Counted from the first letter of the stretch, positions 37,433 to 64,000 are shown. The stretch: DNA of 64,000 bases from Candidatus Nanohalarchaeota archaeon (GCA_017610385.1 JAFCCC010000004.1:2863-66862); one strand, 5' to 3'. Notes: a model not told the origin generated them from the sequence alone. Translations and numbers: made by a program.

Positions 37433-37823
37433 TAATCTTGTGCGTTCCCGGAGTTATTGGAATACTTCCGGTTACATTAAAATCAACAATTTCATAAACA
37501 GGTATTAGTCCTTTATGCGAGTTCAAATTAATTGAAATTTCTCTTCCATTAATTGTTGTGGCATTAATTCCTGCCGGAAAAGTTACTTGAATTGACGTTC
37601 TAGCGGGTTCTCCTTGAGAATAAACAAGCTCTACAGCTTCTCGAATTGCACTTAACGCGTTTTTTGCTATTGCCGATCTCGAAACCAAAGTTAAATCCAC
37701 TGATGAATTCTGAGTACTGAAGATAATTGGAGCTGCTAAAAGTAACGCAAACGCTATAATTACTAAGTATTCTAAAGCAATTTGTCCTTTTATTTTATTT
37801 CCTAAAAAAGAGATCATACACAT
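37392..37823 (-). CDS. Pilin-like protein (Epd/DUF361-like signal)
   Basis: ..GNKIKG|QIALEYLVIIAFALLLAAPIIF (Gln+1, Glu+5). First gene of the minus-strand pilin operon. Confidence 0.7.
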   Translation of the reverse strand: MCMISFLGNKIKGQIALEYLVIIAFALLLAAPIIFSTQNSSVDLTLVSRSAIAKNALSAIREAVELVYSQGEPARTSIQVTFPAGINATTINGREISINLNSHKGLIPVYEIVDFNVTGSIPITPGTHKIIVRAVENYVKISG

Positions 37824-43741: not shown

Positions 43742-46700
43742 ATTTGTTTTCCAGTAATCGCATCAATAACTATCTTTTGAGTTGCGTAATATGGGTAATA
43801 AATTATATCTGCTCCATCTATTTCCCCTTTAATTACTTTTTTGGCCCGAGAAACCGCGTTATTTCTTGAATAGTCTATTTCTAATACTTTAGCATTCTGA
43901 GCGTCTACTTTTCCTATATTTGCAAATGGATTTTCTTTACCAGAATAAAATGTTTTTTCACCATCCAGAAATCTCTTAACAAATTTTTGAGAAACCAGAT
44001 GATCTAGCATTGCTGAAAGATCACTAAAACTTATTGATAACTTTTCAATTAATTCATTTTTTGTTCTAGGTTTTAAACTAACTATATTCAATAATTCAAG
44101 TTCTCCACCACTTAAATTCGGACTTCTAAATTTAAGTTCGCCATTTTTTCCATCTAACACCAATTTTAAATTTCCAGAAGTTATGACCCAAAGCGGATAA
44201 TATACTTCTTTCATGGATTCTCTAAGTTTTTTTTCAAAATAATCTTTCGAATACTTTGGAGAAAATATTTTCAACATTTTAGTAGATTCTGTCATTACTT
44301 TCATTTCTCCACCATGTTTAGTTTTCCTGACTCGTATTTCAGTCATAATTGGATAGTCTTTTCCTAAAACCAAGCCCACACCAGACGGAAGTCCACGTAT
44401 AGCTCCCTTAACGCTTTTTGTAACTCCCTCAAAGGATTTAGAAATAGCGTTTAAATCGCTTGGATTGGTAACCCTTAAAATAACTTGTGTATTGCACTGG
44501 GATAAAATATTATTATCTATTCTAGCAGGTCTTTGAGAAACAACAATTAATCCTAGACCGAATTTTCTTCCTTCTGATGCAATAGACATTAATGTGTTAG
44601 AACTTGCCGCCTTTCCAATATTCCTCTCAGGAATAAAATTGTGTGCTTCCTCAATTAACATTAAAAAAGGACTAACTTCCCCTCTTTTTCTTAAATAAAA
44701 TAGATTTTTAGAAAGTAAATGCACAATAATTTCTTGGGTTTTTGGTGCAACACCCTTCAAGTTAATTAATGTTGCTTGCCCAGGTTTTATTAAATTTTTG
44801 AGTTCTGTGGGATTTTTAGAAAATAGACTGCTTTTTCTAAGTAATTCTAGTAAATTAATCAAACCCCACTTTGCTTTGGATTCTGACGCCGTACAAAAAG
44901 AGAGTATATCATCCAAAGAATAGTTTTTACCTTCTAACTCTCTCAAAATTGTATATAAAATACCTAATTGAGAATTAGTTAATTTAGATGGTAAAACATC
45001 CATAATATCTTGTGCTTTCAAATTCATTTCTGAGAAAGTTAATAATTGTGCTTCACTATTCACACTGGATTCCCCAGTAAATTCAACAACTTTGTAACTT
45101 TTTGGAGTTACTTCAAATTTTTCCTGTTGTTCCTTAGTAATTTTATTTTTGGTTCCTAAACTATGATATTCTCCATGTGGATCTATTATTAATACTGGAT
45201 AATTTTTGTCTAATAGTTCTTCACATACGACCCCAGCAAGATAACTATTATGAGAAACAATTCCTCCTCGCCCAGCTATAAAAGTATGGGTGTCGTCTAC
45301 AGTGAGATCATAAACATACCCATCATCACTAGTTTTTTCATTAATTTCTGTAATTTGATCCCAAAATATATCCGAATCAGCCAACAAACTTATTTTTTTA
45401 GAAGGCAAAACTTCTTTCAGTTTTTTAACAGCCTCTCGAGACGGAAATCTGTTTTCTAACTCATATCTACTAATAATCATATCACTCATTCCAATTCTCT
45501 TACTTAACTCCATTTGAGATAAACCATTTTCTTTTCGGGTTCGAAGAATTTCTGGCCCAAGATGGGGTATAATATCTACATTTGTATTTCCTTTTGTGTT
45601 GTTAACATAAGATTTTAGTTTTTCTTGTTTTCGTTTTATAGAAAATCCAATACGGTCTGAAAATTTACAAAGATTTCCAGCGCCACTAATTGAGACTTCA
45701 TAATACCAATTACCAGAATGATTTGAATTAGTTGCTTTTTTAAATGACTTCCTCAGCCTTGCGACAATCTTAAAGTTTAATAGCAAATACATGATCTTAT
45801 TGGCTATATCTTTGCTTGCACTGGATAGTGTAACCGCACAATTTTCCATACAGCCTTCACAATCATAAAAAGTTCTTAAAAATGATTTCTTACAGTTTAT
45901 ATCTGACTTTAAAATGCAATCCGGAATATTTTTCTCCCGAGATTTATGACTTACCTCATATCCAATGCATTCCAAAAATAATTTTAAAGATTTAGAATCA
46001 ATATATCGTGCACAATCTGAGAACTTGCCGGTTTTTAATCCAAAAAGCTTCATTCCAAGATTTGAGAATCTTCGTAATAGTTTTTCATCATAATTAGTAA
46101 AAATGATTCTGAAACTAGTTTTATCTACTTCAGCTCCCTCTGCAATACTCAATGCAAGAAATTCTGCTAAATCGGGACTCATCGCAGTGGGATATGAAAT
46201 GGCCTTACTAAATTTTGAATGTATTAATATACAACCTCGTGAAGAATTAAGGGGCGAATCGTCCTCGTAGATCCAATTATCAATAGTCTTTCTTTTTTCA
46301 GGAATACCCAAAATATTACAAATTCTTTGTGCCCCAAAACCTTCTTCTCTTAATCGCATAACTTTTGTATACGTCTTTTTTGCTTCTTTTCTTAAGTCGT
46401 TGATCTGATTACTTTGTTCTAAAACAGATTCGGGAATCTTCAAATCATTTTTACTGTTTACCAAGGTTTTTCTTGGAATTGCAATATAGTCCCCTTTCTT
46501 TAGAACACGAGACTCCTTAAATTGAACTTCGTCTTGAATTGTAAGCAAAGGATGTTCTTCAGAAACCTCTATTTTTCTCCCAGAGGCAGTTCTAAGTTCT
46601 AATATTTTATCGCATTTTTTCCTGTATGCAAAACTTGCTGGAGATGTTTTTAGTTTTAAATTTTTATCTATAGATTGCACGAAAACATTTTCAAGTGATA

Positions 46701-47223
46701 TTAATTTTTCTTCTTCAGAATTTTTAATCACATTATTTTCACTGTCTTTAAAAATAGCTCTTATTGTCTTTAATGATCCATCATCCAATAAAATTTCAGT
46801 GTTCCCACTTACACATTTTCCCGAGCCAGTCTGAGCAAGAATTGCGACGTGTTTGTAAAATGATTCAGGATCTAGATGAATTTTAACATGCGTATTAGAT
46901 TCTAACTTTCCAATATATAGTCCACGTTCATCTAAACCCAGAGTTTCTGAAATTAATTCTTGCGATGCAGAGTAAATCATAGAATTTGGTTTAATTGCAG
47001 ATTTTGGTCTTCTCAATAATCCTTTTTCTCTGTAACCAATAATAGAAGTTTGCGCTTCTGTTTTACCATCTTCATATTTTTTAACTTCTTGAACTTGTGC
47101 CAAAATCCATTGTTCTTGTTTTTTAACTGCCACAAAATCAAATTTTTTAATTTCTGTATACGCTCTAAACTTAAATTCCGAGGTAGATACGGTACCTTCA
47201 ATCTCTCCAATTAACATATGCAT
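43738..47223 (-). CDS. HerA-like (DUF87) P-loop ATPase interrupted by one intein, with a C-terminal ~230-aa extension
   Basis: N-terminal barrel-like region. Walker A ILAQTGSGK|SYLAGVVCEELL after intein removal. Walker B LMLIEEAHNF. SEGRKFGLGLIVVSQRPARID. The extension contains a wHTH-like ELLNIVSLKPRTKNELIEKLSISFSDLSAMLDHLVSQKFVKR. The extein is 638 aa. Confidence 0.8.
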   Translation of the reverse strand: MHMLIGEIEGTVSTSEFKFRAYTEIKKFDFVAVKKQEQWILAQVQEVKKYEDGKTEAQTSIIGYREKGLLRRPKSAIKPNSMIYSASQELISETLGLDERGLYIGKLESNTHVKIHLDPESFYKHVAILAQTGSGKCVSGNTEILLDDGSLKTIRAIFKDSENNVIKNSEEEKLISLENVFVQSIDKNLKLKTSPASFAYRKKCDKILELRTASGRKIEVSEEHPLLTIQDEVQFKESRVLKKGDYIAIPRKTLVNSKNDLKIPESVLEQSNQINDLRKEAKKTYTKVMRLREEGFGAQRICNILGIPEKRKTIDNWIYEDDSPLNSSRGCILIHSKFSKAISYPTAMSPDLAEFLALSIAEGAEVDKTSFRIIFTNYDEKLLRRFSNLGMKLFGLKTGKFSDCARYIDSKSLKLFLECIGYEVSHKSREKNIPDCILKSDINCKKSFLRTFYDCEGCMENCAVTLSSASKDIANKIMYLLLNFKIVARLRKSFKKATNSNHSGNWYYEVSISGAGNLCKFSDRIGFSIKRKQEKLKSYVNNTKGNTNVDIIPHLGPEILRTRKENGLSQMELSKRIGMSDMIISRYELENRFPSREAVKKLKEVLPSKKISLLADSDIFWDQITEINEKTSDDGYVYDLTVDDTHTFIAGRGGIVSHNSYLAGVVCEELLDKNYPVLIIDPHGEYHSLGTKNKITKEQQEKFEVTPKSYKVVEFTGESSVNSEAQLLTFSEMNLKAQDIMDVLPSKLTNSQLGILYTILRELEGKNYSLDDILSFCTASESKAKWGLINLLELLRKSSLFSKNPTELKNLIKPGQATLINLKGVAPKTQEIIVHLLSKNLFYLRKRGEVSPFLMLIEEAHNFIPERNIGKAASSNTLMSIASEGRKFGLGLIVVSQRPARIDNNILSQCNTQVILRVTNPSDLNAISKSFEGVTKSVKGAIRGLPSGVGLVLGKDYPIMTEIRVRKTKHGGEMKVMTESTKMLKIFSPKYSKDYFEKKLRESMKEVYYPLWVITSGNLKLVLDGKNGELKFRSPNLSGGELELLNIVSLKPRTKNELIEKLSISFSDLSAMLDHLVSQKFVKRFLDGEKTFYSGKENPFANIGKVDAQNAKVLEIDYSRNNAVSRAKKVIKGEIDGADIIYYPYYATQKIVIDAITGKQI
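45247..46815 (-). mobile_element. Intein (523 aa, LAGLIDADG type) in Walker A of the HerA-like gene
   Basis: Cys start (CVSGNTEILL, TGT 46815..46813). Block B is EVSEEHPLL. LAGLIDADG-like FLALSIAEGAEV and FLRTFYDCEGCM. XRE-type HTH NGLSQMELSKRIGMSDMIISRYELENR. Ends FIAGRGGIVSHN (AAT 45249..45247) + Ser. Confidence 0.85.
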
Positions 47224-47328: not shown

Positions 47329-48243
47329 ATGTTCAGTTACATTTCATTTGGTTTCTTTTCAATTGTGATCGCTTTATTTGGATCTTCTATAGCCGCTTAT
47401 TTTGACGTTAAAACTACAGATGTTCCAGATTTTATTGCTATTTATATGGCAATTGCCGGAGTTACAATAAATGCAATTCAAAGTTATTTAACAGGAAATA
47501 ACACGTACATTATTGGTTCATTGATTGTGGGTGGCATTTTTACTGCGATAGGTGCTTTGAAATATTATACCCGGTTGTGGGGTGGTGCTGATTTTCTTTT
47601 GTTTGGTGCTATAGGGTTTTTAATTCCACGTATGCCAAGCACATTCGTCACTGTTTCTGCACCTTGGCCATATCCTGTCACACTGGTATTCAATATCATG
47701 ATTATTGGTGCAATATATTCTATAATTTATTCAGTATTGTTAGCAATTAGAACAAAGGGATATTGGAAATTATTTTTGAATAATTTTAGAAAATCCAGAA
47801 AAACACTAATTCTCGGTTTAATATTGTATTTTGGTTTGGTTTTCATTTTATCTGGAGCAACGTCTATTATTACTTCAATTCCTTTTACATTTATTTTTAT
47901 AGGTTTTTTGCAAAAATTTATTTTATATTTTATTGCTTTAATTTTCTTGACTGTTTTTTTGCAAACAATTCAATTTGATATTTTAAATAAAAAGATTAGA
48001 ACTACCCATTTAAAAGAAGGTGATGTTCTATCTGAAAAAGTAATATTAAGAAAAAAAATAATTCCCGCAAATAAAATTATTGGACTTACCAAAGAGCAAG
48101 TTAAACAAATTAAACAAGAGAAGCGATTTATTAAAATCACTCAAGGCGTACCATATATTCCGATATTTCCAATAGCCATTATAGTCACTTTCTTTTTCGG
48201 AGATATAATTTATATATTACTTCCAATTGCTGGAGTTTATTAG
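47329..48243 (+). CDS. A24-family aspartic prepilin/preflagellin peptidase (PibD/FlaK/EppA-like)
   Basis: Polytopic. First catalytic-Asp context is SIAAYFDVKTTDVPDF, second is LWGGADFLLFGAIGFL (GxGD-like). The C-terminal ~90 aa are extra. Confidence 0.75.
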   Translation: MFSYISFGFFSIVIALFGSSIAAYFDVKTTDVPDFIAIYMAIAGVTINAIQSYLTGNNTYIIGSLIVGGIFTAIGALKYYTRLWGGADFLLFGAIGFLIPRMPSTFVTVSAPWPYPVTLVFNIMIIGAIYSIIYSVLLAIRTKGYWKLFLNNFRKSRKTLILGLILYFGLVFILSGATSIITSIPFTFIFIGFLQKFILYFIALIFLTVFLQTIQFDILNKKIRTTHLKEGDVLSEKVILRKKIIPANKIIGLTKEQVKQIKQEKRFIKITQGVPYIPIFPIAIIVTFFFGDIIYILLPIAGVY

Positions 48244-51028: not shown

Positions 51029-51481
51029 ATGTTGCGCAAGGGTATTTCACCAGTAATTGCTATTGTACTAATTTTAATGATGACTGTTTCACTTGCTGGA
51101 CTGGCATACGTTTGGATTAATCGTATGATGAAAAATAACATGAAAAATACAGATAGCACGTTGGAGACCAAATTAGAAATTTTAGGACTGGATTGTACAG
51201 TGAATAATATAATTAATTTAACTGTGCAAAATATTGGCAAAAGAAAAATCAATGCAGGAACCACGTATATTTATTTTAGGGATGTTTCTAAAGATCGTGT
51301 TATGGGTCGACTCGAGGTTGATTGGAGCGCTCAGGATTTTGTAAATCCAGATGGTTTTTCAATAATTCCAAATCTCGACATCTCTTCAGTTGTTAATTGG
51401 ACAAAAGGAGATTATTATGAATTGCGATTCGAATTCCCAACCACGAATTATAAAATAGAGAAAACATGCACAGTTCAATAA
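51029..51481 (+). CDS. Archaeal pilin (DUF1628/arch_flag_Nterm-type signal)
   Basis: MLRKG|ISPVIAIVLILMMTVSLAGLAYVW. Confidence 0.75.
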   Translation: MLRKGISPVIAIVLILMMTVSLAGLAYVWINRMMKNNMKNTDSTLETKLEILGLDCTVNNIINLTVQNIGKRKINAGTTYIYFRDVSKDRVMGRLEVDWSAQDFVNPDGFSIIPNLDISSVVNWTKGDYYELRFEFPTTNYKIEKTCTVQ

Positions 51482-53099: not shown

Positions 53100-54965
53100 A
53101 TGAAACAGAAATTCAGATGTGGTTTAGAAATACACCAGCAGCTAAATACCAAAGAAAAATTGTTTTGTAGTTGTTTAAATTCTGTTGAAAATATTCAACC
53201 GTATTCTAAATTAGAACGATTTTTAAGACCTGTGACATCTGAGCTCGGTGAGAAAGATCCAACCGCTTTATTCGAATTTCTAAAAAAGAACAAATTCATT
53301 TACAACCTGTATCACAACAGCACATGTCTTGTTGAATTAGATGCAGAGCCACCCCATCGTTTAAATGAAGAAGCACTTAGAATTGTTCTAGAAGCCGCAT
53401 TATTAATGAATTGTCATATTCCCGATGAAATACAATTTATGCGTAAAATGGTTCTAGATGGTTCAAATACTGCTGGTTTCCAGAGAACCTCTATTGTCGG
53501 CATGGATGGCTATATTGAAACTTCTGAAGGAAAAGTAAGAATCAAAGATATAGAATTAGAAGAAGAGGCCGCTGCACTAAATCAAAGACAAAATAAATCA
53601 GTTATATATGATTTAGATAGATTAGGCATACCTTTAATTGAAGTTGGAACTGAAACGGATATAAAAAGCATTGAACACGCGAAAGAAGTAGCACTTAAGA
53701 TTGGAATGCTTTTAAGAAGTACTGGAAAGGTTAAACGAGGTTTAGGGACCATTCGGCAGGACGTTAATATTTCAATTGATGGGGGATCTAGAGTCGAAAT
53801 AAAAGGATTTCAGGACGTTAAAAACATAGATAGTTTAATTAAGTTAGAAATCACGAGACAGCGTTCTTTGATCCAAATTAAAAAAGAATTGAACAAAAGA
53901 GGAGTAAAAACATTCAAACTAGAACAAATGGATAGTTCTAATTTATTTTTAAAAAGTGAAAATAAATTAATAAGATCAATTTTAAAGGAAAATGGAGTAG
54001 TACTTTCTGTAAAACTGCCAAAGTTTGCGGGTTTAATGAAAAAAATTATTTCTGATGAAAAGACCTTAGCAAAAGAATTAGTGGATTATGTTAAGATTTA
54101 TGGACTAAAAGGAATAATTCATTCTGATGAAAATCTTAAAAAATATGAGATAGAAACTGACTTTGAAAGATTAGCAAATAAACTCAAAAAAGAAAAAGAA
54201 GATGTTGTTCTTATTGTTGCTGGGCACAAAGATCAAGTAAAAAAAGCAATGATGGCCCTCTGTAAACGAATTGAATTTCTTCCAATCGGCGTCCCAGAAG
54301 AAACAAGAGCTGCTGATTTAAATTATACCACACATTATTCTAGACCATTGCCTGGGAAATCTCGAATGTACCCAGAAACAGATATTCCCCCCAAAGAAAT
54401 TTCAAAAGCACTTTTATCTAAAATCAAAAAAGAATTGCCGCAAACCTTAGAGGAAAAAGAAAAAAAATACTCTAAATTAATTGGAAAGGAAATGGCATCA
54501 CAATTAGTTGATTCTTATCATTTCGTCATATTTGAAAAAATAATTTCTGAGTCCAAATTTGATAAGAAAATTATTGCTAATATTTTTACAAATGTACTTA
54601 ACAGTCTAGATAAACGTGGTTTTCTAACTGCCAAACTAACAAAAAAACACTTTTTAGATATTATTAAATTATTAGAAAGTAGAAAAATTGCGACTAATTC
54701 AACTTCACTAATCTTATCTAAATTATGTTTAAAGCCAGAACTTTCTGTTAGTGACGTTATAAAACAAAATAACTTAGCTAAATTAACTGACAAGGAACTT
54801 AAAGAATTAATTAAAGTTACTATTTTTCAAAATAAGAAAGACCTTGCCGGAAAAGAATATCACGCAGAAAAAATACTTATGCAAATTTTAATGCGAAAAA
54901 TTGGTGGTCGTGCCGAAGGATCAAAAATATCTGAATTCTTAAAAAAAGAACTTAAAAATAATTAA
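53100..54965 (+). CDS. gatE: Glu-tRNA(Gln) amidotransferase subunit E
   Basis: MKQKFRCGLEIHQQLNTKEKLFCSC.., ..CLVELDAEPPH.., GatB/E core plus a C-terminal helical tail. 621 aa. Confidence 0.9.
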   Translation: MKQKFRCGLEIHQQLNTKEKLFCSCLNSVENIQPYSKLERFLRPVTSELGEKDPTALFEFLKKNKFIYNLYHNSTCLVELDAEPPHRLNEEALRIVLEAALLMNCHIPDEIQFMRKMVLDGSNTAGFQRTSIVGMDGYIETSEGKVRIKDIELEEEAAALNQRQNKSVIYDLDRLGIPLIEVGTETDIKSIEHAKEVALKIGMLLRSTGKVKRGLGTIRQDVNISIDGGSRVEIKGFQDVKNIDSLIKLEITRQRSLIQIKKELNKRGVKTFKLEQMDSSNLFLKSENKLIRSILKENGVVLSVKLPKFAGLMKKIISDEKTLAKELVDYVKIYGLKGIIHSDENLKKYEIETDFERLANKLKKEKEDVVLIVAGHKDQVKKAMMALCKRIEFLPIGVPEETRAADLNYTTHYSRPLPGKSRMYPETDIPPKEISKALLSKIKKELPQTLEEKEKKYSKLIGKEMASQLVDSYHFVIFEKIISESKFDKKIIANIFTNVLNSLDKRGFLTAKLTKKHFLDIIKLLESRKIATNSTSLILSKLCLKPELSVSDVIKQNNLAKLTDKELKELIKVTIFQNKKDLAGKEYHAEKILMQILMRKIGGRAEGSKISEFLKKELKNN

Positions 54966-55415
54966 TTAAGAAGTAGTTATTGATGTTTCTTCATCAATTA
55001 AATTTGGACAATCGGGAGTTGTGATTGTTATTTTATCTGGCAAACTTGAAATAGAGGTTATTGTTATGGTTTTTATATCTGCGGATTGTAATGTTCCTGA
55101 GTTCTCATTTCCTTCCTGAACTCCAGACCGATATACATAAACATTTACGTCTGTTAAATCTATTGCACCAGTATTTGCTATAGAAACTAGCATTCGATCA
55201 TTTGTATCATCCCACACGGCATCATAAATCGCAATCCCCGCATAAGAACAAGAAATAACCTGATTAGATCTATTACCCACATTTTCAGTTTGTTCTTTTG
55301 TAAATGTCGTTAACCAAGCAGTTAATATTGCTGCTACAGCCATTGTAAATGCTATAAGAAGTACTGCAGCAATTAAAGGAGATACACCCTTTTGTTTATT
55401 CATGATTCGCCTCAT
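54966..55415 (-). CDS. Archaeal pilin (DUF1628/arch_flag_Nterm-type signal)
   Basis: ..MNKQKG|VSPLIAAVLLIAFTMAVAAILTAWL. Its stop codon directly abuts the gatE stop. Confidence 0.75.
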   Translation of the reverse strand: MRRIMNKQKGVSPLIAAVLLIAFTMAVAAILTAWLTTFTKEQTENVGNRSNQVISCSYAGIAIYDAVWDDTNDRMLVSIANTGAIDLTDVNVYVYRSGVQEGNENSGTLQSADIKTITITSISSLPDKITITTPDCPNLIDEETSITTS

Positions 55416-55449
55416 ATTATAAGTTACGAAAGTTTGTATATAAAACTAT

Positions 55450-55743
55450 CTACTCTTTAATCTTGTCCTTAAGGAACTCTATTTCGTCTGTAAGAACTTT
55501 CTGGTTCTTTTCTAGCAATTCTACGGAATGAAGGATCTCATTTGTCAGTTTTTCAAAATTCTGACGCTGTACTACTTCCTTACCCAAAAGTTTTTCATAC
55601 TTTTCCTTATCATTGCTTTGCACAGTCTCTAAATTACATTCTAATTCATTTAGCTTACTAAACATATCTTTTTCAAATTTTTCCAAGTTTTTTTTAACGA
55701 ACTTAAGTTCCCGTCTTCTTCTTTTTTTAAATAAAAATGTCAT
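55450..55743 (-). CDS. Small coiled-coil protein
   Basis: 97 aa, basic N-terminus (KKRRRRELKF) then heptad-like sequence. TAATG overlap with the upstream gene. Confidence 0.5.
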   Translation of the reverse strand: MTFLFKKRRRRELKFVKKNLEKFEKDMFSKLNELECNLETVQSNDKEKYEKLLGKEVVQRQNFEKLTNEILHSVELLEKNQKVLTDEIEFLKDKIKE

Positions 55744-56924
55744 TACATCCCCATCTTTTCAAGAAGCATTTCAATTAATTCTGCGTTCTTTTGTTTAGTA
55801 TCTTCAAAAGCATTTTTTAGTTTATTTATTTCTCCTTTACCTGCTTTTGTAATTTCCAAATCCCTTAACTTATCTTTGTATTTATGCAATTCATATTTCT
55901 TTAGTTCTTTAAGTGTCTCACGCAATTCTTTTTCTATCTCGTTTAATTCAGAGATATTATCTTTAACTTTTTCTTGATCACTTTCAATGGAAAATACCTT
56001 AACCATTAATTGTTCTAGTTTATTGTTCATCTCTAATAGTTGTAAATTCCGTTTTTCGAATGCCTCTTGAGTATCTTTTAAGACTTGTTCTGTATGTTTT
56101 TCTTGTTCTTGTACTGTTGGTAACTCACGGGTTCTTTCATCAACATCTTTAATATTAATCTTAATTTTAGAACAATCTGCCTTGGTGCTTTGTAATTCGT
56201 GTTTGAAATCCTTTAAAAGGTCTTTGATAGCAAGAACTTGTGCTGCGGTTTTTCCATTTTCAGTTAGTTTATTCCAGATTAATTCATAAGATTGCTTTAA
56301 TCTATCAAATGCAGGAGTCATAACAAAATCTGTTTCAATTCTATTTTTTAACTCATCAAATTCTTCTCTAAACTTCTTGGCCCACAATAAGCTCATTTGT
56401 AATTCTTCTTCTTTTTTATCTAGTGTAGAAATTGAACCCATCATTTTTTTCTGAGTTTCTATTATTTCAAAGACTTTCCCAGAAACTCCTTCTAAATCTT
56501 CTCTTTGTTTTTTCGATAGTTGATATTGTTCTTCTAGCTCTGCACTGTATTTTTCAATCTTTCTATCTAATTCATAAACTTCTGCCTTTGAAAAATCTTG
56601 ATTTTCTTCTAATTTAATTATTCTCTGAACGAATTCAACATTTAATTTACTCTCTAAATTATGCAGAGTCTCTGTCAAAACAGCTATTTTTCGCATAGTT
56701 TCAGCTTCTGTTGTTTCTGATGTTCTAAATTCCTCATTGACTTTTTGTTTAAAGTCATCTGTACTTTTAACTAATTCCCAGATTTCTGAACGAAGTTCTT
56801 CTGATTCTTTGACATTTTTGTCTATTTTAGAAGTATATAAAACCCCTTTTTCTTCTAATTTCTTTTCAAAGTTCTGCCCAATTATTTCTATCTTCTGATT
56901 AATTGTTTGCTGTAAATTACCCAT
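55743..56924 (-). CDS. Coiled-coil protein (probably the 3' part of a disrupted longer gene)
   Basis: 393 aa, K/E/L-rich throughout. C-terminus ..KQKNAELIEMLLEKMGM. The frame stays open upstream of its ATG (..NEHVSHLKEL-MGNLQ). Confidence 0.6.
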   Translation of the reverse strand: MGNLQQTINQKIEIIGQNFEKKLEEKGVLYTSKIDKNVKESEELRSEIWELVKSTDDFKQKVNEEFRTSETTEAETMRKIAVLTETLHNLESKLNVEFVQRIIKLEENQDFSKAEVYELDRKIEKYSAELEEQYQLSKKQREDLEGVSGKVFEIIETQKKMMGSISTLDKKEEELQMSLLWAKKFREEFDELKNRIETDFVMTPAFDRLKQSYELIWNKLTENGKTAAQVLAIKDLLKDFKHELQSTKADCSKIKINIKDVDERTRELPTVQEQEKHTEQVLKDTQEAFEKRNLQLLEMNNKLEQLMVKVFSIESDQEKVKDNISELNEIEKELRETLKELKKYELHKYKDKLRDLEITKAGKGEINKLKNAFEDTKQKNAELIEMLLEKMGM

Positions 56925-56941
56925 TAATTCTTTAAGATGAC

Positions 56942-57211
56942 TTACATGTTCATTTCCCTGTGTTCATTTCCCTGTTTTACAGAAGTATCAAATGTTTCAA
57001 TATGTTCTGATAAAGACTGAATTTTATTTCCTATTTTTATTAAATCAGTCTGTTTAGCTGCTTCAGTATCTAAATTTAATGCCTCAATTTCTCCCAACCG
57101 TTCATTTAACTCTGTCACGGTTTCCGCAAGTTTATTTGTTTCTATTTTTGAAATCCTATCAGTAATCCCGCTTACTTCTTCTTGTATTTGACCTAATTTC
57201 TTATCTGTATT
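56942..57211 (-). pseudogene. Start-less coiled-coil reading frame, the middle piece of a once-continuous ~590-aa gene (57510..55743)
   Basis: 89 sense codons, NTDKKLGQIQEEVSGITDRISKIETNKLAETVTELNERLGEIEALNLDTEAAKQTDLIKIGNKIQSLSEHIETFDTSVKQGNEHREMNM*, with no plausible start. A 14-bp tandem duplication separates it from the downstream ORF, and a 1-nt frame offset separates it from the upstream ORF. Confidence 0.6.
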
Positions 57212-57510
57212 TTAGTCAGTGTTTTAGTTTCCAAAGTAATAATTCTTTCTTTTAATTCCCTATTTTTTTCATTTACTTTATCAAAATCCTTATCTACTAG
57301 CGATAAATTCCTATTCAATTGCTCACTTAAATTAAACGTAATTCTCTTTTCTAAATCACTCAATTTTGATTCGATAGGACTTAGTTTTGAAATTCGATTT
57401 TTCAGAGATTCAATTTCTTTCTGTCTCCTGTTATCCTTAGTTTTTATACTTTCAATACTACTGGTCACCCGTTCTTTTAACTCCGTTAGATGTTTTTCAA
57501 TATCTTCCAT
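57193..57510 (-). CDS. Coiled-coil protein (probably the 5' part of the disrupted gene)
   Basis: The ATG at 57510 (MEDIEKHLTELKERV..) lies 1 nt after the upstream TAA. The track's earlier start lies inside the upstream gene. Confidence 0.5.
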   Translation of the reverse strand: MEDIEKHLTELKERVTSSIESIKTKDNRRQKEIESLKNRISKLSPIESKLSDLEKRITFNLSEQLNRNLSLVDKDFDKVNEKNRELKERIITLETKTLTKIQIRN

Positions 57511-57511
57511 T

Positions 57512-59347
57512 TTAAATCCCCATTTTATCAAGCATAGATTCAACTACTTCAGCATTCTTACGAAGTGCTCTTTCTAAAAATAGGTTGAGCTCCTTTAAAT
57601 CTTGCATGTTTGCCTTTGATTCATTAACTTGTTTGATTTCAAATTCAAATTTCTTACCCAAACTAGAATTATAATCTTTTAGTGCCACCAACCCATCTTT
57701 TAACTCTTGTTGACTTTGTTCTAATAAGAATAATTTCCCAGCCAAATTATTTATTTTGGTGTCTATTTGAACATCAATTAAACCTTTCTTTGTAAGTTCA
57801 GACTTATAATTTTCTAAAACCCGATTAAATCCTTTTTCTGAATCATTTAGTTCTTCCATTTTTCGTTCAACAGATTTAAATTGCCTTATATTTTCCTTAA
57901 TCTTAGAATATTCTTTTTCAAAGTCCCCTAGTCTTGTAGATAATATTTTTAAAGAACTTTCAATTGGTTTCTGCCGTTCCCCGATTTCTTTAGTTTCATC
58001 TAGTCTTTCTTTGAATTCTTTTAGTTTTCTGGTAATCTTTCCAACATCTTCTTTGGTAATCACATCTGAAATTTTCTCATTTAGCAAATTAGTTTGATTT
58101 TCAACAGATTTAATAGTCTTATACATAATTTCCTTGTTTAAACGCTCTAAAATAGCATTAATGTTTTCTATTCTTGATTTATTTGCTCGTTCTAATTCCA
58201 AATATGCTCTCTCAGAAATACTTCCTGTTTCAAAATCCTCCCGCGCTTTCTTCAATAGTTTCAGAATATTTCTTTTTTCACCTTCTAATTCTTCTGGACC
58301 TTCCATACTTCTAGAAAGAATCTCCATTTTTTCTTCTACTTTGCGGTCCAAATCATTGCTTTTTTCTTCTAATGCTTGCTCTAAATTTGTGATTTTTTTG
58401 GAAATACCTTTAGTTAATTTACTAATTTCCAGTTTAATTTCATCAAAAGACCCAGATAGTTCTTTCTTTTGAGATTCGTTTTGCAATTTATATTTTTCCA
58501 AACTTTTTAAGGATTCTTCTAATTCTTTTAATTTTTCAGAAATTTCTTTGGGTAATTCTTTAATTCCAATATTTTTAACTTCCTGCACCAATTGATTTTT
58601 AAATTTGTCTAAATCTGTTTTTTTGATGACATCTTCATTAAATTTTAAGTTTAATCCATCTTGTTGTTTTACTAATTCTTGAGTTAATTCATCTACTTTT
58701 TCTATGGTACTTAGGTTTTTAGTTAAATCTGCGGTTTTATTATTCACTTCCATAAAAATGCTCTCTATTTTAGCGGCAATTCTTTCATTGTATCTTTTTG
58801 TGTGCTCAATCGAATCTATATCTTCTTTAATCTTATTTGATAACTCTACTAAATTTTCTAAACTTTTTATTTTTTCAAAAGAACCCCTAATTGACTTTAA
58901 TTCATTATCAACGCTTCCAAATACTTTTTCATTTCTTTCTATTTTTGCAAAAGATTTATCCACCTCTAAATTTAATTTTTCAATTTTCATTGCAAATTTT
59001 TCTGGGGAAACCTCTTCCATAATTTCTTTAAATTTATCTATATTGAGTTCAATTTCTCTTTGAGATTTTTCACGATCCAAAATCATTCTTCTTAAATCTC
59101 CAATCTCTTCAGAAACTCTATTTAATCTTTCATTTACCTGAGGTCTAAAGCTATCAACTAGTTCTAACTTTCCCCCCAGCTTCTCTATTTCTATAACAAG
59201 TTTTTCTACTTGAGAATCCTCGGTTTTTAAGAAAGGAGTTTGTTTTACTGGTTCTATTTTGGTTACCTTAAATTTATTCCAGCAAGAATCACAAACACTA
59301 CCTTTTTCGTCTTTCAAATCTTTTCCACAAATAATACATTTTCTCAT
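57512..59347 (-). CDS. Zn-ribbon + long coiled-coil protein
   Basis: N-terminus MRKCIICGKDLKDEKGSVCDSCWNKF (CxxC..CxxC), then ~570 aa of heptad-like sequence. C-terminus ..LRKNAEVVESMLDKMGI. ATGA overlap with the upstream gene. Confidence 0.6.
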   Translation of the reverse strand: MRKCIICGKDLKDEKGSVCDSCWNKFKVTKIEPVKQTPFLKTEDSQVEKLVIEIEKLGGKLELVDSFRPQVNERLNRVSEEIGDLRRMILDREKSQREIELNIDKFKEIMEEVSPEKFAMKIEKLNLEVDKSFAKIERNEKVFGSVDNELKSIRGSFEKIKSLENLVELSNKIKEDIDSIEHTKRYNERIAAKIESIFMEVNNKTADLTKNLSTIEKVDELTQELVKQQDGLNLKFNEDVIKKTDLDKFKNQLVQEVKNIGIKELPKEISEKLKELEESLKSLEKYKLQNESQKKELSGSFDEIKLEISKLTKGISKKITNLEQALEEKSNDLDRKVEEKMEILSRSMEGPEELEGEKRNILKLLKKAREDFETGSISERAYLELERANKSRIENINAILERLNKEIMYKTIKSVENQTNLLNEKISDVITKEDVGKITRKLKEFKERLDETKEIGERQKPIESSLKILSTRLGDFEKEYSKIKENIRQFKSVERKMEELNDSEKGFNRVLENYKSELTKKGLIDVQIDTKINNLAGKLFLLEQSQQELKDGLVALKDYNSSLGKKFEFEIKQVNESKANMQDLKELNLFLERALRKNAEVVESMLDKMGI

Positions 59348-60363
59348 TTACTTGTTCCCACCTTCTTTTTTAATGAAGTCAAATATTCTTGGCACATTTT
59401 GTACATCCCTTTATCATATTTTTCTTTTACTAATGCCAATTCAAGTTCTAAATCACGTAATCCCTTTTTCTGAGACAGTTTTTTAAGTGCAATTTCTATA
59501 TTTTTTATTTGGTCTTTAAGTTCTGCAGGGCTTTTTTTGATTTTTTGTGATGCTTTATTTTTTAAATGCGCTTTGACACCTTTTAAATGTTCTATATTTA
59601 ATTTTCTTTTTCTTACAATAAATTTCTTTCTCCCAAAACTCAAATAAAATATCAAAAGACCTATTGCGATTATCGCTACAGAAACACCATATTTTAAAAT
59701 CTTAGACCAAAGCTCTTTATTTTCCTTAGCTTTTAGAAGTAAATCTCTTTCCTTTGCCATAAACTCTGCAGTATGATTTGAGTTCATGAGTACTCCCTCT
59801 ATTTCTTCCAATGAAATTCTAATAGATTCCAAAGAAGTATATGCTGTATCGTAGTCTTCATCTGCATAGCTTTTTTTCGCGTCATCTAATTTAGTTCCCA
59901 TTTCAAAAATCGATACTTTAATTTCATCAGAAGTTTCATTTAATAGTGATTTTAATACTTGTAATCTGCCTTCATAATACTCAATTAAACTTTTAATCTG
60001 ATTTGGGACCTGACTAACTCTTATTGTAATTTGTTTAGAATAATTTTCACTTTCCATCCCCATTAAAAGAGGATAATATCCAATTTTACTTCCAGATTTC
60101 ACTGTTATAGTAACTGACTCTGCTGTTTGCGCATTCAGAAGAATCGTTTTTTGTTTTGGTTCAATAGCTAAATCACTAGCCAAATTTAAGAGATATGCTC
60201 TTTCAATTCTATCTTGATTTAAAATCGTCAATTTAATAAAGTACGTAGAATTAGGGAGCATAATAATCTCTGATGGTGCGCTTATTATTACTTCTGCATT
60301 TGTTAAGCCAACAAAAAGAAAAAATAAAGTCAAAAAAGCCGCCAATATAGCAAGTTTATTCAT
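59344..60363 (-). CDS. Type-I membrane protein: Sec signal, Ig-like + helical ectodomain, one TM helix, ~95-aa basic cytoplasmic tail
   Basis: MNKLAILAAFLTLFFLFVGLTNA|EVI.. The TM helix YGVSVAIIAIGLLIFYLSF is followed by GRKKFIVRKRKL. The tail is homologous to the C-terminus of the upstream ATPase. Confidence 0.6.
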   Translation of the reverse strand: MNKLAILAAFLTLFFLFVGLTNAEVIISAPSEIIMLPNSTYFIKLTILNQDRIERAYLLNLASDLAIEPKQKTILLNAQTAESVTITVKSGSKIGYYPLLMGMESENYSKQITIRVSQVPNQIKSLIEYYEGRLQVLKSLLNETSDEIKVSIFEMGTKLDDAKKSYADEDYDTAYTSLESIRISLEEIEGVLMNSNHTAEFMAKERDLLLKAKENKELWSKILKYGVSVAIIAIGLLIFYLSFGRKKFIVRKRKLNIEHLKGVKAHLKNKASQKIKKSPAELKDQIKNIEIALKKLSQKKGLRDLELELALVKEKYDKGMYKMCQEYLTSLKKKVGTSK

Positions 60364-63300
60364 TATATCTTCTCCCCATAATTCTTTAGACTTTCTCTCA
60401 AACTTTCCATGTAGATTTCAGTCATTCTAAATGCCCCTGTTTTTAATTTATCTAATGCAAGTTTATACTCTAATTCAATATCTGTAACGTCCGTTCCCTT
60501 CTCTTTAATTCTCTCAATAGCCAATTCAACTTTCTTTAATTCTTCTCCGAATTTCTTGTATGTTGAAAGTTCTTGCTCAGTAATTTTGTGTGGTTCGTGC
60601 AATAGCGGTCTAAATTTAATGAAATATGGCCTTCCTTTATTGTACTTTGGGTTCTGTAACATGCCTACACCCACTTCTTCTTTTGTGACTCTCTTAGCGT
60701 AATCTTCTCCGTATTTGTCTTTTACACGACCAATATCTTCCAAAGCCTTTGTATGCATCTGAATTTCTGTTAATACATTACCTCTTAATGCTTCTTTGAA
60801 ATCTGCTAAAACCTGAGAAATCATAATTAGACCAATACCCCACTTTCTAAATTCTCTTGCAGCTTTTTCTAATGCAATATAACCGCCTTTTCCACCATAT
60901 CTTTCTAATAATCTATGAACCTCATCAAATACAATAAACATTTTTAGTTCAGTAGATTCTTCCCAAGGTTCCTTAAATATTGTACTTACAATAGAGCTTA
61001 CTGCTTGATCATATTGCCCTGGCTTTAATTTATTTAATGTAAATATCGTAATCTCACCAGGATTCATATATTTCTTAAAGTCAATATGCAAATCTGGATC
61101 AGTTACTTCGTAAATCATTCCTTTAAATGGTCTGGAATCACTTTCTTTCATTCCAAATTCTTTATATAGTTTCAATAGATTTGGGTCTTTTACTCTTTTA
61201 ACAAACCCAGTCCATTGTGCTGTTGGATCAAACACAATGATTGGAATATTTTTATTTAATAATTCTTCTACCATGACCATCGCAGATACGGATTTGCCAC
61301 TTCCTGTGGCCCCCGCAGTTATCATATGTGTACTTAAATCGGCGGAATTAAATGTGGCTTTTGTATTTGTTTCTGCTATTTTTCCCAAATACAAATCTCC
61401 TGATGGAAGTGTTTTGAAAGACATTGGGAAAATATACTTTGATTTAGACAATTTCCATTTTAAGTAATATCTCCTGCCGTAAAATGCACCCAACCCTCCC
61501 AAAATAACACCTAATATAGAAATAGCAATTATTATTCTTATAGGTGTCCAGAAGGGTTTAATTACTTCAAATATGTCTGCAGATGAAGCGGTTTTATTCT
61601 CATAGGTTGCTGTTGTTTCTATGAAATATCTACCCAAGTCAATATTTGTTAATGGTACTGATCTAACAAAGGATAATGAGGTTTCCAAAGCTAATTCTTC
61701 CTCTTGTTGCAATAAAACCTTTTCACTGTCAATTGATTTTATATTATAGGTTAAATGCACATCAAACTTCTTCTTAAATCCTAAATTATAGATGGAAGTA
61801 TGGAACTTTAAAGAACTATTTGAGGTTACGTATTTTGTTAGAGTCTCTACTTTAATATCTAATAGTGCTTCTTGTTCTGGAGTTACAAACAAGGTTACTG
61901 GAATTGTTTGTGAACTTGTCCCAACTGTTATTTTTATTTCTCCTGTATAAATTCCAGGCTGTGTTGTTGGTAATGTAAACACTTTTACTTTAAGATCTTC
62001 TGTTGTGCCACCCTTCATTGTAAATACATCTTTTTCAAGTACGATATATTCCCATACAGAACCACTTACTTCTAATTTTGTTTCTTGAGTTGTTTCTTGA
62101 TTATTTGTAATCCAAAGAGAATACATCTTACTATCTCCTGGGCTCAAAGTAGCTTCTATCAAATCTGTTTTAACTGAAAAAGAGGGTACTGCCGCTTGTT
62201 CTTTATTTAATTTATCTAATTCATCTTGTAATTGACTTAATGAAACTCCTCCTCCTCCGCTACCTCCAGAATAGCTAGTAGTGCTTCCACAAGAGCCACA
62301 GTCTTCTGAACAAGATGTGCAGGTTTCATATTGTGCGTCACATACACCATCTCCACAAACAACCATTTCTGCTACTGCATAAGCAGAGAAAGAAGTTAAT
62401 CCAGTGACTGTAATAGTTTCTGAATTTACATCAGGCGTTCCGCCAACACAAACCCAAGTAGAATTGCAGCTTCTTGAATTAAAACTCCAATCTGAGCATT
62501 TATACACTCTTAGAGAATCAACATTAGTATAACTTGTTCCTGAGAAATTCAATTGTAATGATACTCTACTTAAATTAAAGGCATTTTGAACTGATAGTAC
62601 TCTCTGAGTGCTTTTTGTACTGGTTACCCCTACGAATCTTAAAGGCACATCATCAAATTGTATGGGGTCAAGTGTATTTTCTGTAATTGGAACATCATAC
62701 AGTGTAATCCAATGATCAAATGTTCTTATTTTCAGATCGTATGTTGCATTGTATATTGAAGAGTTATAATATCCAGTTCCGTTTGTAGTTAAATTAAATT
62801 GATTATAATTTCCTTCTAAACTTTTATTTACTCTATATAATTCATAAGTAACATCTACGGTACTGTTTTGAGAATCCAAGAAATTTCCAGACAAAGTTAT
62901 CTTATTGAAGAATACTTCAAACCAACCAGTATAATTATCATAGTTTCCAGTTGTATCATTAAAGCCTAGACTATAATCATAACTGCCCAGTTCTGTGAGA
63001 TTGTATAATAACACACTCCACGTAGTATTTGTTAAATTGCTTGTAACATTTGTTAAGGTATACTTTGTTACAGTTCCATTAGGATATGTCAAATTCAAGA
63101 AAACTTGACTAACATTCACATTATCTGAAATATTTGCATAAATGGTATTGTTTTGACCGTAGATTATGTCTGGAATAGTAACATGTTCTAAAATTGGTGC
63201 AGAAATATCTCTATAGGTTATCGCATTACTTTCTATGTCTGTACGTTCAGCACCTACTGTAGCATATGTTGCTTGTAATGTAATATCATATGTTTGTGCA

Positions 63301-64000
63301 TCTGTGTTGTTTGGCGCCGTACAATTTAAATCCCAAAGTTCTATTGTGTTGTCGTAATTATAGCTTACGTTTTCACAAGCATTAGAACCAATAGCTGCTG
63401 TCCAAGTTATATTTTCATCTAAAGATTCGCCGGCCCAGGTTGCGTTTGCCGTTAAATTAATTAACTCCCCAGAACTAACATTTGTTAGTGGAGCAGTACT
63501 GTTTGGAGTCAATATATCCAGTCCAAATTCAGTTACTTTCATGGAAATAGACGTATTTGACTGAATCGGATTTGCAGTTAAATTTGAAATGGAAATTACT
63601 GCAGAATAATTCCCACCCAAAACCGGAGCAGTATAATTAATTTTAATTACTTCTGTATTTGTTGCATTAATTACAAAATTAGAGGTATTTGCTGTAAGGT
63701 AATTAGATAGATTTCCAGAAATACTTAAGGAAAAATTAATTGGAACATTACCTATATTTGTGACATTAATTGTTCCTGCATCATCCTGATTTCCTGTACC
63801 GGTTATAATATTAGTAAAGTTACTCGGAGTTCTAGTCCAATTCAAATCTCGTGGTATAATAATATATGCAGGAATGCTGTCGTAATGTCTTATATCTCCT
63901 GTAGAATTTTGTGTTGTTATATTTAACCAAAGCGTGTAATTTCCAGGACTATAACCATACGGAACACCAACATTCATTTGAATTAGTTTTAATTCTGAAA
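60363..64000 (-). CDS. Single-pass membrane protein: very large sequon-rich ectodomain + cytoplasmic HerA/DUF87-type P-loop ATPase; 5' end outside the window
   Basis: The frame is still open upstream of the track's Met (..SELKLIQ-MNVG), and there is no signal peptide at that Met. Cys-rich linker VCGDGVCDAQYETCTSCSEDCGSCGS. TM helix IRIIIAISILGVILGGLGAFYG + RRYYLKWKLSKSK. Walker A ITAGATGSGKSV, Walker B MFIVFDEVH, AREFRKWGIGLIMISQ. Confidence 0.75.
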   Translation of the reverse strand, partial: SELKLIQMNVGVPYGYSPGNYTLWLNITTQNSTGDIRHYDSIPAYIIIPRDLNWTRTPSNFTNIITGTGNQDDAGTINVTNIGNVPINFSLSISGNLSNYLTANTSNFVINATNTEVIKINYTAPVLGGNYSAVISISNLTANPIQSNTSISMKVTEFGLDILTPNSTAPLTNVSSGELINLTANATWAGESLDENITWTAAIGSNACENVSYNYDNTIELWDLNCTAPNNTDAQTYDITLQATYATVGAERTDIESNAITYRDISAPILEHVTIPDIIYGQNNTIYANISDNVNVSQVFLNLTYPNGTVTKYTLTNVTSNLTNTTWSVLLYNLTELGSYDYSLGFNDTTGNYDNYTGWFEVFFNKITLSGNFLDSQNSTVDVTYELYRVNKSLEGNYNQFNLTTNGTGYYNSSIYNATYDLKIRTFDHWITLYDVPITENTLDPIQFDDVPLRFVGVTSTKSTQRVLSVQNAFNLSRVSLQLNFSGTSYTNVDSLRVYKCSDWSFNSRSCNSTWVCVGGTPDVNSETITVTGLTSFSAYAVAEMVVCGDGVCDAQYETCTSCSEDCGSCGSTTSYSGGSGGGGVSLSQLQDELDKLNKEQAAVPSFSVKTDLIEATLSPGDSKMYSLWITNNQETTQETKLEVSGSVWEYIVLEKDVFTMKGGTTEDLKVKVFTLPTTQPGIYTGEIKITVGTSSQTIPVTLFVTPEQEALLDIKVETLTKYVTSNSSLKFHTSIYNLGFKKKFDVHLTYNIKSIDSEKVLLQQEEELALETSLSFVRSVPLTNIDLGRYFIETTATYENKTASSADIFEVIKPFWTPIRIIIAISILGVILGGLGAFYGRRYYLKWKLSKSKYIFPMSFKTLPSGDLYLGKIAETNTKATFNSADLSTHMITAGATGSGKSVSAMVMVEELLNKNIPIIVFDPTAQWTGFVKRVKDPNLLKLYKEFGMKESDSRPFKGMIYEVTDPDLHIDFKKYMNPGEITIFTLNKLKPGQYDQAVSSIVSTIFKEPWEESTELKMFIVFDEVHRLLERYGGKGGYIALEKAAREFRKWGIGLIMISQVLADFKEALRGNVLTEIQMHTKALEDIGRVKDKYGEDYAKRVTKEEVGVGMLQNPKYNKGRPYFIKFRPLLHEPHKITEQELSTYKKFGEELKKVELAIERIKEKGTDVTDIELEYKLALDKLKTGAFRMTEIYMESLRESLKNYGEKI

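Follow-up and report, generated by a model that had tools for sequence, protein, structure and literature searches.

A predicted HerA-clade ATPase and its conserved coiled-coil partner at a probable SPEARE-family giant-gene locus of a DPANN-type archaeon

The window analyzed in this study is a stretch of 64,000 nucleotides (nt) from the contig JAFCCC010000004.1 (positions 2863-66862; GCA_017610385.1, Candidatus Nanohalarchaeota archaeon), in which the region 54966..64000 on the minus strand harbors the 3' end of a giant gene followed by a series of smaller genes. By its identity and architecture, the giant gene very probably belongs to the SPEARE giant-protein family of Nanohaloarchaeota (Hamm et al., 2019; Reva et al., 2023). 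Its product is predicted to combine a long ectodomain, a single transmembrane (TM) helix, and a cytoplasmic P-loop ATPase of the HerA clade, and the gene of a long coiled-coil protein is conserved downstream of it. A SPEARE-family locus together with the working model described below is, taken as a whole, considered the probable explanation. The original prediction for this region, made from the DNA alone, had regarded the arrangement as an undescribed system; the family had in fact been named by Hamm et al. (2019; PMC6642349) and re-read by Reva et al. (2023; PMC10266531), and a search of a literature library found no paper on it beyond these two. The source organism is a small-genome, DPANN-type archaeon of a low-GC (∼30% in the source genome), non-halophilic lineage, and its closest relatives are metagenome-assembled genomes (MAGs) of Aenigmatarchaeota.

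The giant gene and its family

The features of the giant gene are given below from the amino-terminus to the carboxy-terminus, amino acid (aa) positions being those of the 1,211-aa fragment encoded in the window.

60363..64000, minus strand: 3' end of the giant, probably SPEARE-family gene, 1,211 codons and a stop, open at the window edge
62364..64000, minus strand: variable ectodomain of beta-rich Ig-like repeats dense in N-x-S/T, extending upstream of the window (sequon statistics; weak or partial Pfam matches)
aa 1-545, minus strand: sequon-rich beta-type sequence
62247..62363, minus strand: Cys-rich motif and Gly-rich linker, opening a conserved module of ∼650 aa (alignment with relatives)
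62283-62363 (aa 546-572), minus strand: Cys-rich motif VVCGDGVCDAQYETCTSCSEDCGSCGS (CGDGxC...C..C..DC)
aa 578-584, minus strand: GGSGGGG linker
61542..62195 (aa ∼602-819), minus strand: two juxtamembrane Ig-like modules ending in a conserved PFWT (alignments; hhalign to the g339 family)
61479..61541 (aa 820-840), minus strand: sole TM helix IRIIIAISILGVILGGLGAFY, predicted N-out/C-in (hydropathy scan; AlphaFold2, AF2)
61437-61478, minus strand: positive-inside flank GRRYYLKWKLSKSK directly after the TM helix
60600..61436, minus strand: predicted HerA-clade P-loop ATPase core (Pfam, NCBIfam, phmmer against PDB, AF2/Foldseek)
61290-61313 (aa 896-903), minus strand: Walker A, GATGSGKS
61203-61235, minus strand: FDPTAQW (alignment)
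60915-60941 (aa 1020-1028), minus strand: Walker B, MFIVFDEVH
60813-60860 (aa 1047-1062), minus strand: AREFRKWGIGLIMISQ, motif ARExRKWG...SQ (alignment with HerA)
60366..60599 (to aa 1211), minus strand: three-helix C-terminal tail with the motif D-IELE-KLA-DKLK-G-F-M-E-Y (alignment; AF2)

Translation of the minus strand from position 63998 yielded 1,211 stop-free codons up to the TAA at 60363-60365. The ATG at 63977 is internal, and as the 23 bases upstream of it are also open, the open reading frame (ORF) runs past the window, in line with the more than 1,200 codons foreseen for it. A sister contig (JGI 3300033144 Ga0366838_1000196, 97,219 bp; locus L001), located via the exact match of a 339-aa protein, showed 99.68% identity to the window over 14.65 kb. 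The gene call on this contig amounts to 11,177 aa and stops only where the contig does, which makes this length a minimum; of the 33.5-kb gene, 10 kb were read, corresponding to the C-terminal 3,332 aa.

The TM and ATPase part retrieved more than 500 homologs (E down to 1e-184, 47-69% identity) from Aenigmarchaeota, Woesearchaeota, Hydrothermarchaeota, and Nanohaloarchaeota, including proteins of Nanohaloarchaea SG9, Ca. Nanohalovita haloferacivicina, and Ca. Nanohalococcus occultus. Among them, AQV86_02330 of SG9 (P0080; E ∼1e-139, 50% identity) bears a locus tag from the SPEARE list of Hamm et al. (PMC6642349). The C-terminus of BNXNv_0298 of Ca. Nanohalovita, which was analyzed with the SPEARE proteins and appears as a giant SPEARE protein in the legend to Fig. 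1 of Reva et al. (PMC10266531), showed 55% identity, and its short neighbor gene was also homologous. The nanohaloarchaeal giants named SPEARE possess a long extracytoplasmic part, a TM segment towards the C-terminus, and a conserved intracellular part, which was then taken for a type III restriction enzyme; the production of a SPEARE protein in Ca. Nha. antarcticus was demonstrated by proteomics, and Altiarchaeales as well as Woese-, Aenigm-, and Micrarchaeota were noted to contain similar sequences (Hamm et al., 2019; PMC6642349). In Ca. Nanopetramus SG9, SPEARE genes make up ∼4% of the genome (PMC6642349). The cytoplasmic part was later re-read as a VirB4/TraG-like secretion ATPase followed by a coiled-coil tip, a second ATPase gene downstream was noted, and an envelope-spanning "straw" resembling a type IV secretion system (T4SS) was proposed (Reva et al., 2023; PMC10266531).

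Species genomes of GTDB contained at least 567 family loci. When 1.84 billion representative sequences were searched exhaustively with HMMER, 356 clusters at 50% identity were obtained (E<=1e-30), with lengths up to 7,878 aa and the ATPase located C-terminally in most. In the best 80 of the at least 567 loci, the ATPase-bearing ORFs were mostly of ∼2,200, 2,950, or 3,100 aa, or exceeded 3,700 aa and were open at the locus edge; complete ones showed a signal peptide and one TM segment ∼380 aa from the C-terminus. The giants of Ca. Nanohalovita (locus L002) and of the Woesearchaeota MAG JAIPIC010000001 (locus L003), 8,880 and 15,808 aa by gene call, end in the order Gly-rich linker, (Cys motif), two Ig-like modules, TM helix, ATPase, and tail, and behind each, its start overlapping the stop of the giant, lies a paralog of 628 or 699 aa, respectively, that consists of a signal peptide and the ∼650-aa module. 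As these giants share the module with the short paralogs, which carry it directly after the signal peptide, the giant protein can be described as a variable ectodomain joined to a conserved ∼650-aa module, and the gene in the window is no odd fusion. The reading that in relatives the ATPase forms a gene of its own behind the giant was rejected, since translation showed an ATPase within each giant and identified the smaller gene as a tandem paralog.

The survey also yielded several observations on the distribution of the family. In L003, the 15,808-aa gene, its 699-aa paralog, and the coiled-coil partner are followed by another gene of more than 4,143 aa (1-10004 and 15145-22100). Several loci (L035, L049, L052, L056, L057, L059, and others) contain, on the opposite strand downstream of the partner, a second large gene with juxtamembrane Ig modules; this gene (cluster 1 of the clustering) is often convergent to the first, giving many genomes with tail-to-tail SPEARE-like pairs. 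The family occurs as well in a non-DPANN lineage, on a 1.9-Mb contig of Ca. Hydrothermarchaeum profundi JdFR-18 (L009), and in bins labeled Heimdallarchaeota, Methanosarcinales, and Halobacteria (L011, L030, and L065), where the occurrences may be mis-binned symbiont contigs or transfers.

The cytoplasmic ATPase

Directly beneath the membrane lies a P-loop ATPase of ∼370 aa, which is assigned here, from profile, sequence, and predicted fold, to the HerA clade and not to the VirB4 clade, a placement new relative to Hamm et al. (2019) and Reva et al. (2023). The Pfam family DUF87 ("Helicase HerA, central domain") matched with 41.7 bits (cutoff 23.2), and FtsK_SpoIIIE (22.6 vs. 24 bits), HerA_C, TrwB, AAA_10, and ResIII matched below their cutoffs. 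The top NCBIfam models were CedD (3.8e-12) and HerA, both far under the equivalog cutoffs, and the top sequence match in PDB (phmmer) was Sulfolobus HerA 4d2i, in the alignment with which AREFRKWGIGLIMISQ pairs with AREGRKFGVGLTIVSQ (AREGRKFG...SQ). Alignment of 81 sequences showed Walker A, Walker B, FDPTxQW, and RKWG..SQ to be invariant or nearly so.

An AF2 model of the TM segment, ATPase, and tail, built from the 81-sequence alignment, reached a mean predicted local distance difference test score (pLDDT) of 92.5 and a predicted template modeling score (pTM) of 0.86. It comprises the TM helix, ∼15 residues, a short beta-hairpin, and the core, followed by three helices; the TM region forms the long helix H23-56, and the linker from TM to core is of ∼30 residues. 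When the model was compared with PDB using Foldseek, ranks 1-28 were all HerA chains (best E 1.3e-13), followed by TcpA (rank 29), TdpAB, DndH, and the packaging ATPase of Sulfolobus turreted icosahedral virus (STIV), and VirB4 was absent from the top 50. The C-terminal domain was thus rightly placed within the HerA/FtsK superfamily by the original prediction, and comparison confirmed its collinearity with the DUF87/HerA core of the gene at 43738..47223.

The latter gene (minus strand) encodes a canonical soluble HerA (DUF87) with a P-loop interrupted by an intein bearing LAGLIDADG and helix-turn-helix (HTH) domains, and no obvious NurA gene was seen beside it. Within 20 kb, a second intein-bearing ATPase is encoded at 26279..29926 on the plus strand, a PilB/FlaI-type (T2SSE) protein with a LAGLIDADG intein.

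Topology and ectodomain

A hydropathy scan detected a single hydrophobic segment within the 3,332 aa read on the sister contig, in agreement with the one helix and positive-inside flank foreseen after two Ig-like modules. Sequons of the type N-x-S/T numbered 205 in 2,936 ectodomain residues, compared with 82.8 ± 7.5 in shuffled sequences, a saturation that had likewise been foreseen, and none occurred in the 374 cytoplasmic residues. The single hydrophobic segment, the positive-inside flank, and the confinement of sequons to the outer part give strong evidence that the giant protein is of type I, single-pass and N-out/C-in, with a giant, adhesin-like ectodomain predicted to be heavily N-glycosylated.

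Pfam matches to the ectodomain were weak or partial and solely to families of Ig-like beta-sandwiches (NPCBM_assoc, MG2, Filamin, and bMG3), and the juxtamembrane Ig region weakly matched the Ig-like FixG_C. More than 800 aa of beta-rich sequence had been expected before the Cys-rich linker; the order of the parts stands, but the ectodomain within the window totals 819 aa and the Cys-rich linker begins at aa 546. In each of the three giants compared (window 62247-62363, L002, and L003), the conserved module begins behind a Gly-rich linker. Hamm et al. (2019; PMC6642349) recovered ectodomain peptides and cytoplasmic peptides of SPEARE from gel fractions of different size, and hence, the linker could be a processing site.

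The coiled-coil partner and the operon

The genes downstream of the giant gene are as follows.

59344..60363, minus strand: g339, 339 aa, with a signal peptide, Ig-like domain, helical extracellular region, one TM segment, and cytoplasmic helical tail
57512..59347, minus strand: g611, a predicted cytoplasmic protein with a Zn-ribbon and a long coiled coil (partner domain aa ∼45-260)
55743..57510, minus strand: second coiled-coil gene, 591 aa and intact on the sister contig, broken in the window
55450..55743, minus strand: g97, small K/E-rich helical cytoplasmic protein, its start overlapping the preceding stop (TAATG)
54966..55415, minus strand: archaeal type IV pilin-like protein with the class III signal KG|VSPLIA (TIGR02537)

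All four junctions described in the original prediction were found: the stop of the giant gene overlaps the start of g339 (TAATG at 60363), followed by an ATGA at 59344-59347, a 1-nt gap at 57511, and a TAATG at 55743. Judging from these junctions, the giant gene and the downstream genes are predicted to be tightly, translationally coupled.

A homolog of g611 was located directly downstream of the ATPase gene and on the same strand in 70 of the 83 loci searched by tblastn (E 1e-12 to 1e-69); in the all-against-all clustering, such homologs made up by far the largest cluster and followed the ATPase gene in 66 of 82 loci. Nanohaloarchaeal and woesearchaeal loci are included. The order of the giant gene and the Zn-ribbon coiled-coil gene is therefore conserved among relatives. 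The protein contains no hydrophobic segment, consists of Lys and Glu to 30%, and shows the conserved motifs EKLxGKxE and IGELR in its alignment. A search with its single sequence found 0 homologs and a profile found four proteins, word-index searches handling coiled coils badly. No mention of this partner is made by Hamm et al. (2019; PMC6642349) or Reva et al. (2023; PMC10266531), and from its conserved position g611 looks like the second defining component of the SPEARE system.

The gene after the giant one, g339, encodes a type I membrane protein, as had been proposed, with a signal peptide and one TM segment. Its Ig domain resembles the first juxtamembrane Ig module of the family (hhalign probability 94.9%, E 4.7e-8), its tail resembles that of the ATPase protein (BLASTP E 4e-4), and in 8 loci an equivalent separates the ATPase gene from that of the partner. 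Hence, g339 looks like an ATPase-less relative of the conserved module, and it may co-assemble with the giant protein.

The several further long coiled-coil proteins proposed earlier reduce to one gene of 591 aa, frameshifted in the window into three ORFs (57193..57510, 56942..57118, and 55743..56924). Two indels distinguish it from the intact copy on the sister contig, a loss of 22 nt near 57211 and a tandemly duplicated stretch of 14 nt (ACAGGGAAATGAAC x2) at 56962-56975; they could represent a strain variant, a pseudogene, or an assembly error. The C-terminus of the 591-aa protein is paralogous to that of g611 (E 2e-9). NCBIfam matches of the coiled-coil genes to SMC/Rad50 were rejected as compositional, as ATPase heads are absent. 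Relatives of g97 were not detected in the fetched loci by tblastn.

The pilin and other genes of the window

The pilin at the end of the region does carry the class III signal ascribed to it (TIGR02537, 30.2 bits, cutoff 20) and does adjoin the operon, with a gap of 34 nt instead of 35; its inclusion in the apparatus did not hold. A regular-expression scan of the 83 loci found no class III signal beside the module outside this contig, and the pilin was consequently rejected as a component of the system. A TATA-like box (TTTATATA) lies 22-29 nt upstream of its ATG, a spacing that would fit a leaderless archaeal transcript and that, in a genome of 30% GC, is suggestive only. Owing to its absence beside the module in relatives, its own TATA-like box, and the other pilus genes in the window, the pilin is probably a separate unit adjacent to the operon.

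Type IV pilus genes are scattered over the window (30794..31759, 33761..37823, 47329..48243, and 51029..51481). They encode a UpsF-like membrane protein, two class III signal proteins by a 923-aa VWA protein, a FlaK-like prepilin peptidase, and a UpsA-like pilin, and the PilB-type ATPase also belongs among them. The gatE gene (53100..54965), whose stop abuts the pilin stop, is intact in the window with 621 aa; its counterpart on the sister contig is divided into two calls by a run of Ns and a difference of 1 nt (L001 16175-16179; window ∼54192-54197).

Proposed mechanism and alternative explanations

The working model of a translocase is put forward tentatively, as a possible mechanism. Similar to other HerA/FtsK ATPases, the cytoplasmic domain would form a hexameric ring at the inner face of the membrane. 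Given the linker of ∼30 residues between TM helix and core, such a hexamer would hold the ring against the membrane, bundling six TM helices around a pore and six long, glycosylated, host-binding fibers outside. The coiled-coil partner would organize or regulate the ring by docking on the helical tail, and the ring, driven by ATP, would carry a polymer through the membrane of the symbiont where the two cells are in contact. Nucleic acid would be the most likely polymer, since the nearest characterized relatives (HerA, CedB/CedD, and FtsK) act on DNA.

Several observations weigh against this model. Clustering of the 82 neighborhoods revealed no polytopic channel protein of the CedA/VirB6 type conserved beside the gene, and there is no linked nuclease or DNA-processing gene; six single TM helices are a doubtful conduit for DNA or protein. 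No HAS-barrel was found, either in the AF2 model or as a sequence match N-terminal of the core. Profile searches of the g611 family in Pfam and PDB gave only generic coiled-coil matches (DUF1664, Laminin_II, and MCP), the AF2 model of g611 residues 1-300 was poor (pLDDT 58, pTM 0.19; long helices only), and the docking of the partner on the tail is purely what we infer. In addition, the N-terminal ∼7,800 aa (∼23 kb) of the giant protein lie outside the part read. A further proposal, that the Ig modules with TM helix and HerA ring, the helical tail, and the coiled-coil partner constitute a previously unrecognized, self-contained transport machine of host-dependent archaea, distinct from T4SS, Ced, the type VII secretion system (T7SS), and FtsK, is rather doubtful; here, a hexamer of giant adhesin fibers would attach to the host, and nucleic acid of the host or some other polymer would be drawn in by the ring, or material pushed out.

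A HerA-like ring that does not translocate and only oligomerizes, anchors, or remodels, clustering the fibers onto a coiled-coil scaffold (g611, g591, and g97), is likewise rather unlikely, yet a serious rival to the working model. It would serve mechanical stability, tension, turnover of the contact site, or the signaling of host binding. What is conserved as a partner is a long coiled-coil protein and not a channel or nuclease, and the operon holds a second and a third coiled-coil gene. The retention of Ig module, TM segment, and tail without an ATPase in g339 suggests a structural role for the tail and the extracellular module, and HerA is an assembly platform in the Sir2-HerA and DUF4297-HerA complexes, which were among the top structural matches. 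However, the family-wide invariance of the catalytic motifs argues for real ATP turnover, and HerA/FtsK rings of known function act on a polymer threaded through the pore.

The straw of Reva et al. (2023), in which the cytoplasmic domain is a VirB4/TraG-type secretion ATPase and the giant protein a conduit for effectors that the symbiont injects into the host, is considered improbable. The ATPase does share a superfamily with VirB4 and VirD4, weak sub-threshold matches to TrwB_AAD_bind, AAA_10, TraC, and TraD were obtained, the coupling protein TcpA is the first Foldseek match after HerA, and a second, short paralog adjoins the giant in many genomes. The reading is weakened by the HerA-like fold, with no VirB4 among the top 50 structures, by the absence of PF03135, and by the lack of other T4SS genes. 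Searches of P0071 and P0087 (E<=1) did not recover PF03135, the N-terminal domain (NTD) of VirB4 that had been described in the short paralog; the region in question consists of a signal peptide and extracellular Ig modules. The window protein gave no match to PF03135 either (E<=0.1). No cluster of VirB6/CedA-like, VirB3/8-like, relaxase, or further conjugation genes was conserved in the 82 neighborhoods by sequence clustering, which divergent proteins could escape, and a fiber of Ig repeats is not an obvious tube.

A HerA-based antiviral defense module displayed at the membrane is highly improbable. PADLOC matches to mad8 (1.9e-12, nearly full length) and to several HerA defense models, together with the defense HerA complexes among the top folds, speak for it, but these matches stem from the ATPase fold held in common. 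The 82 neighborhoods contain no linked effector of the Sir2, DUF4297, nuclease, or methylase kind, and a giant glycosylated ectodomain and the spread in host-dependent archaea fit cell-cell interaction better. Scarcely any credence attaches to the type III restriction enzyme of Hamm et al. (2019), which would degrade imported DNA: the Pfam match to ResIII is weak (21 bits for the window protein and 28-30 bits for paralogs from Nanohaloarchaeota), concerns a family of helicase/ATPase subunits, and is confined to the P-loop region; DUF87/HerA gives a higher score, above its threshold; and sequence and fold searches found no nuclease domain or motif, a conclusion reached also by Reva et al. (PMC10266531). 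That the ectodomain and ATPase are separate genes joined by misassembly or sequencing error has a negligible probability, for although indels distinguish the window from the sister contig elsewhere in the operon, the junction is identical on both, and the fused architecture recurs in hundreds of relatives, with dozens of independent assemblies and complete genomes among its sources.

Significance

DPANN archaea depend on physical contact with a host, and such host-dependent archaea are not known to make their own nucleotides; import of a polymer, if true, would supply them. SPEARE-type proteins are the most conspicuous candidate genes for the transfer of material between DPANN archaea and their hosts. 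Besides the placement in the HerA clade, the module boundary at the Gly/Cys linker, the near-universal coiled-coil partner, the ATPase-less relative, and sizes above 11,000 aa are new relative to Hamm et al. (2019) and Reva et al. (2023). The family with the same juxtamembrane module thereby extends to low-GC, non-halophilic lineages and to proteins of more than 11,000 aa, up to the 15,808 aa of the Woesearchaeota MAG. The architecture itself will not surprise a specialist; the minimal unit of the ∼650-aa module and the coiled-coil partner is small enough to express, reconstitute, and image, and brings the question of DPANN-host transfer closer to experimental testing. Together with the partner, the short paralogs of 550-700 aa offer a tractable entry to biochemistry, which the giant genes do not.

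Comparison with known systems

The closest likeness is to SPEARE proteins (NAR1_1133, the AQV86 proteins of SG9, SVXNc_0300, and BNXNv_0298), with which the giant protein shares the ectodomain of Ig repeats, the C-terminal TM segment, the P-loop domain, and the coiled-coil tip, with 48-55% identity over the TM and ATPase part, as well as the Gly-rich linker and the two juxtamembrane Ig modules. It differs in its low-GC, non-halophilic lineage, in a length of at least 11,177 aa against the 9,409 aa published, and in the ATPase-less g339 that follows it in place of a short ATPase paralog. Scans of the C-terminal 3,332 aa showed none of the serine-protease, laminin-G, and toxin-like regions described for certain SPEAREs; Reva et al. 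(2023; PMC10266531) dispute the existence of the serine-protease and laminin-G domains in SPEAREs.

With HerA, a helicase/translocase of archaea and bacteria active in DNA-end resection and defense and the top match by sequence, profile, and fold, the ATPase shares the RecA-like core, the order of motifs, and ARE-RK-G-GL-SQ; in contrast to HerA, it is membrane-anchored, has no N-terminal HAS-barrel, and has no NurA, Mre11, or Rad50 partner. Library scans and clustering of the downstream genes, which encode coiled-coil and membrane proteins, found no NurA or defense-effector partner, and the window also encodes the separate, canonical, intein-containing HerA (43738..47223).

CedB and CedD, the DNA-import ATPases of the Ced system of Sulfolobales, are TM-tethered, belong to the HerA clade, and act at cell-cell contacts (PMC11868833), and the generalization that FtsK/HerA motors are soluble or polytopic was not upheld. 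CedD, the top NCBIfam match and likewise TM-tethered, matches over ∼90 residues around Walker A (model 176-266) with 45.6 bits against a cutoff of 600; its TM segment is N-terminal, it has a VirB4-like NTD and no ectodomain, and the topology predicted here is reversed. The Ced system needs the polytopic CedA/CedE and Ced pili, neither of which is linked here. VirB4 and VirD4 (TrwB and TcpA) belong to the same superfamily and gave weak matches, VirD4-type proteins being membrane-anchored hexamers with the ring under the membrane; they are not the closest by fold, and the present protein has neither the NTD of VirB4 nor the all-alpha domain of VirD4, nor other T4SS genes beside it.

FtsK/SpoIIIE and EssC/EccC of T7SS are membrane-anchored ring ATPases of the superfamily that move DNA (FtsK and SpoIIIE) or proteins (EssC) across membranes. 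Unlike the protein described here, for which the Pfam FtsK_SpoIIIE score remained under the cutoff, they are polytopic or possess several ATPase domains and have no giant ectodomain. Giant adhesins such as halomucin and the Ig-repeat proteins of the RTX/Bap type likewise present huge Ig-like arrays at the cell surface, in their case without the cytoplasmic motor domain that the giant protein carries.

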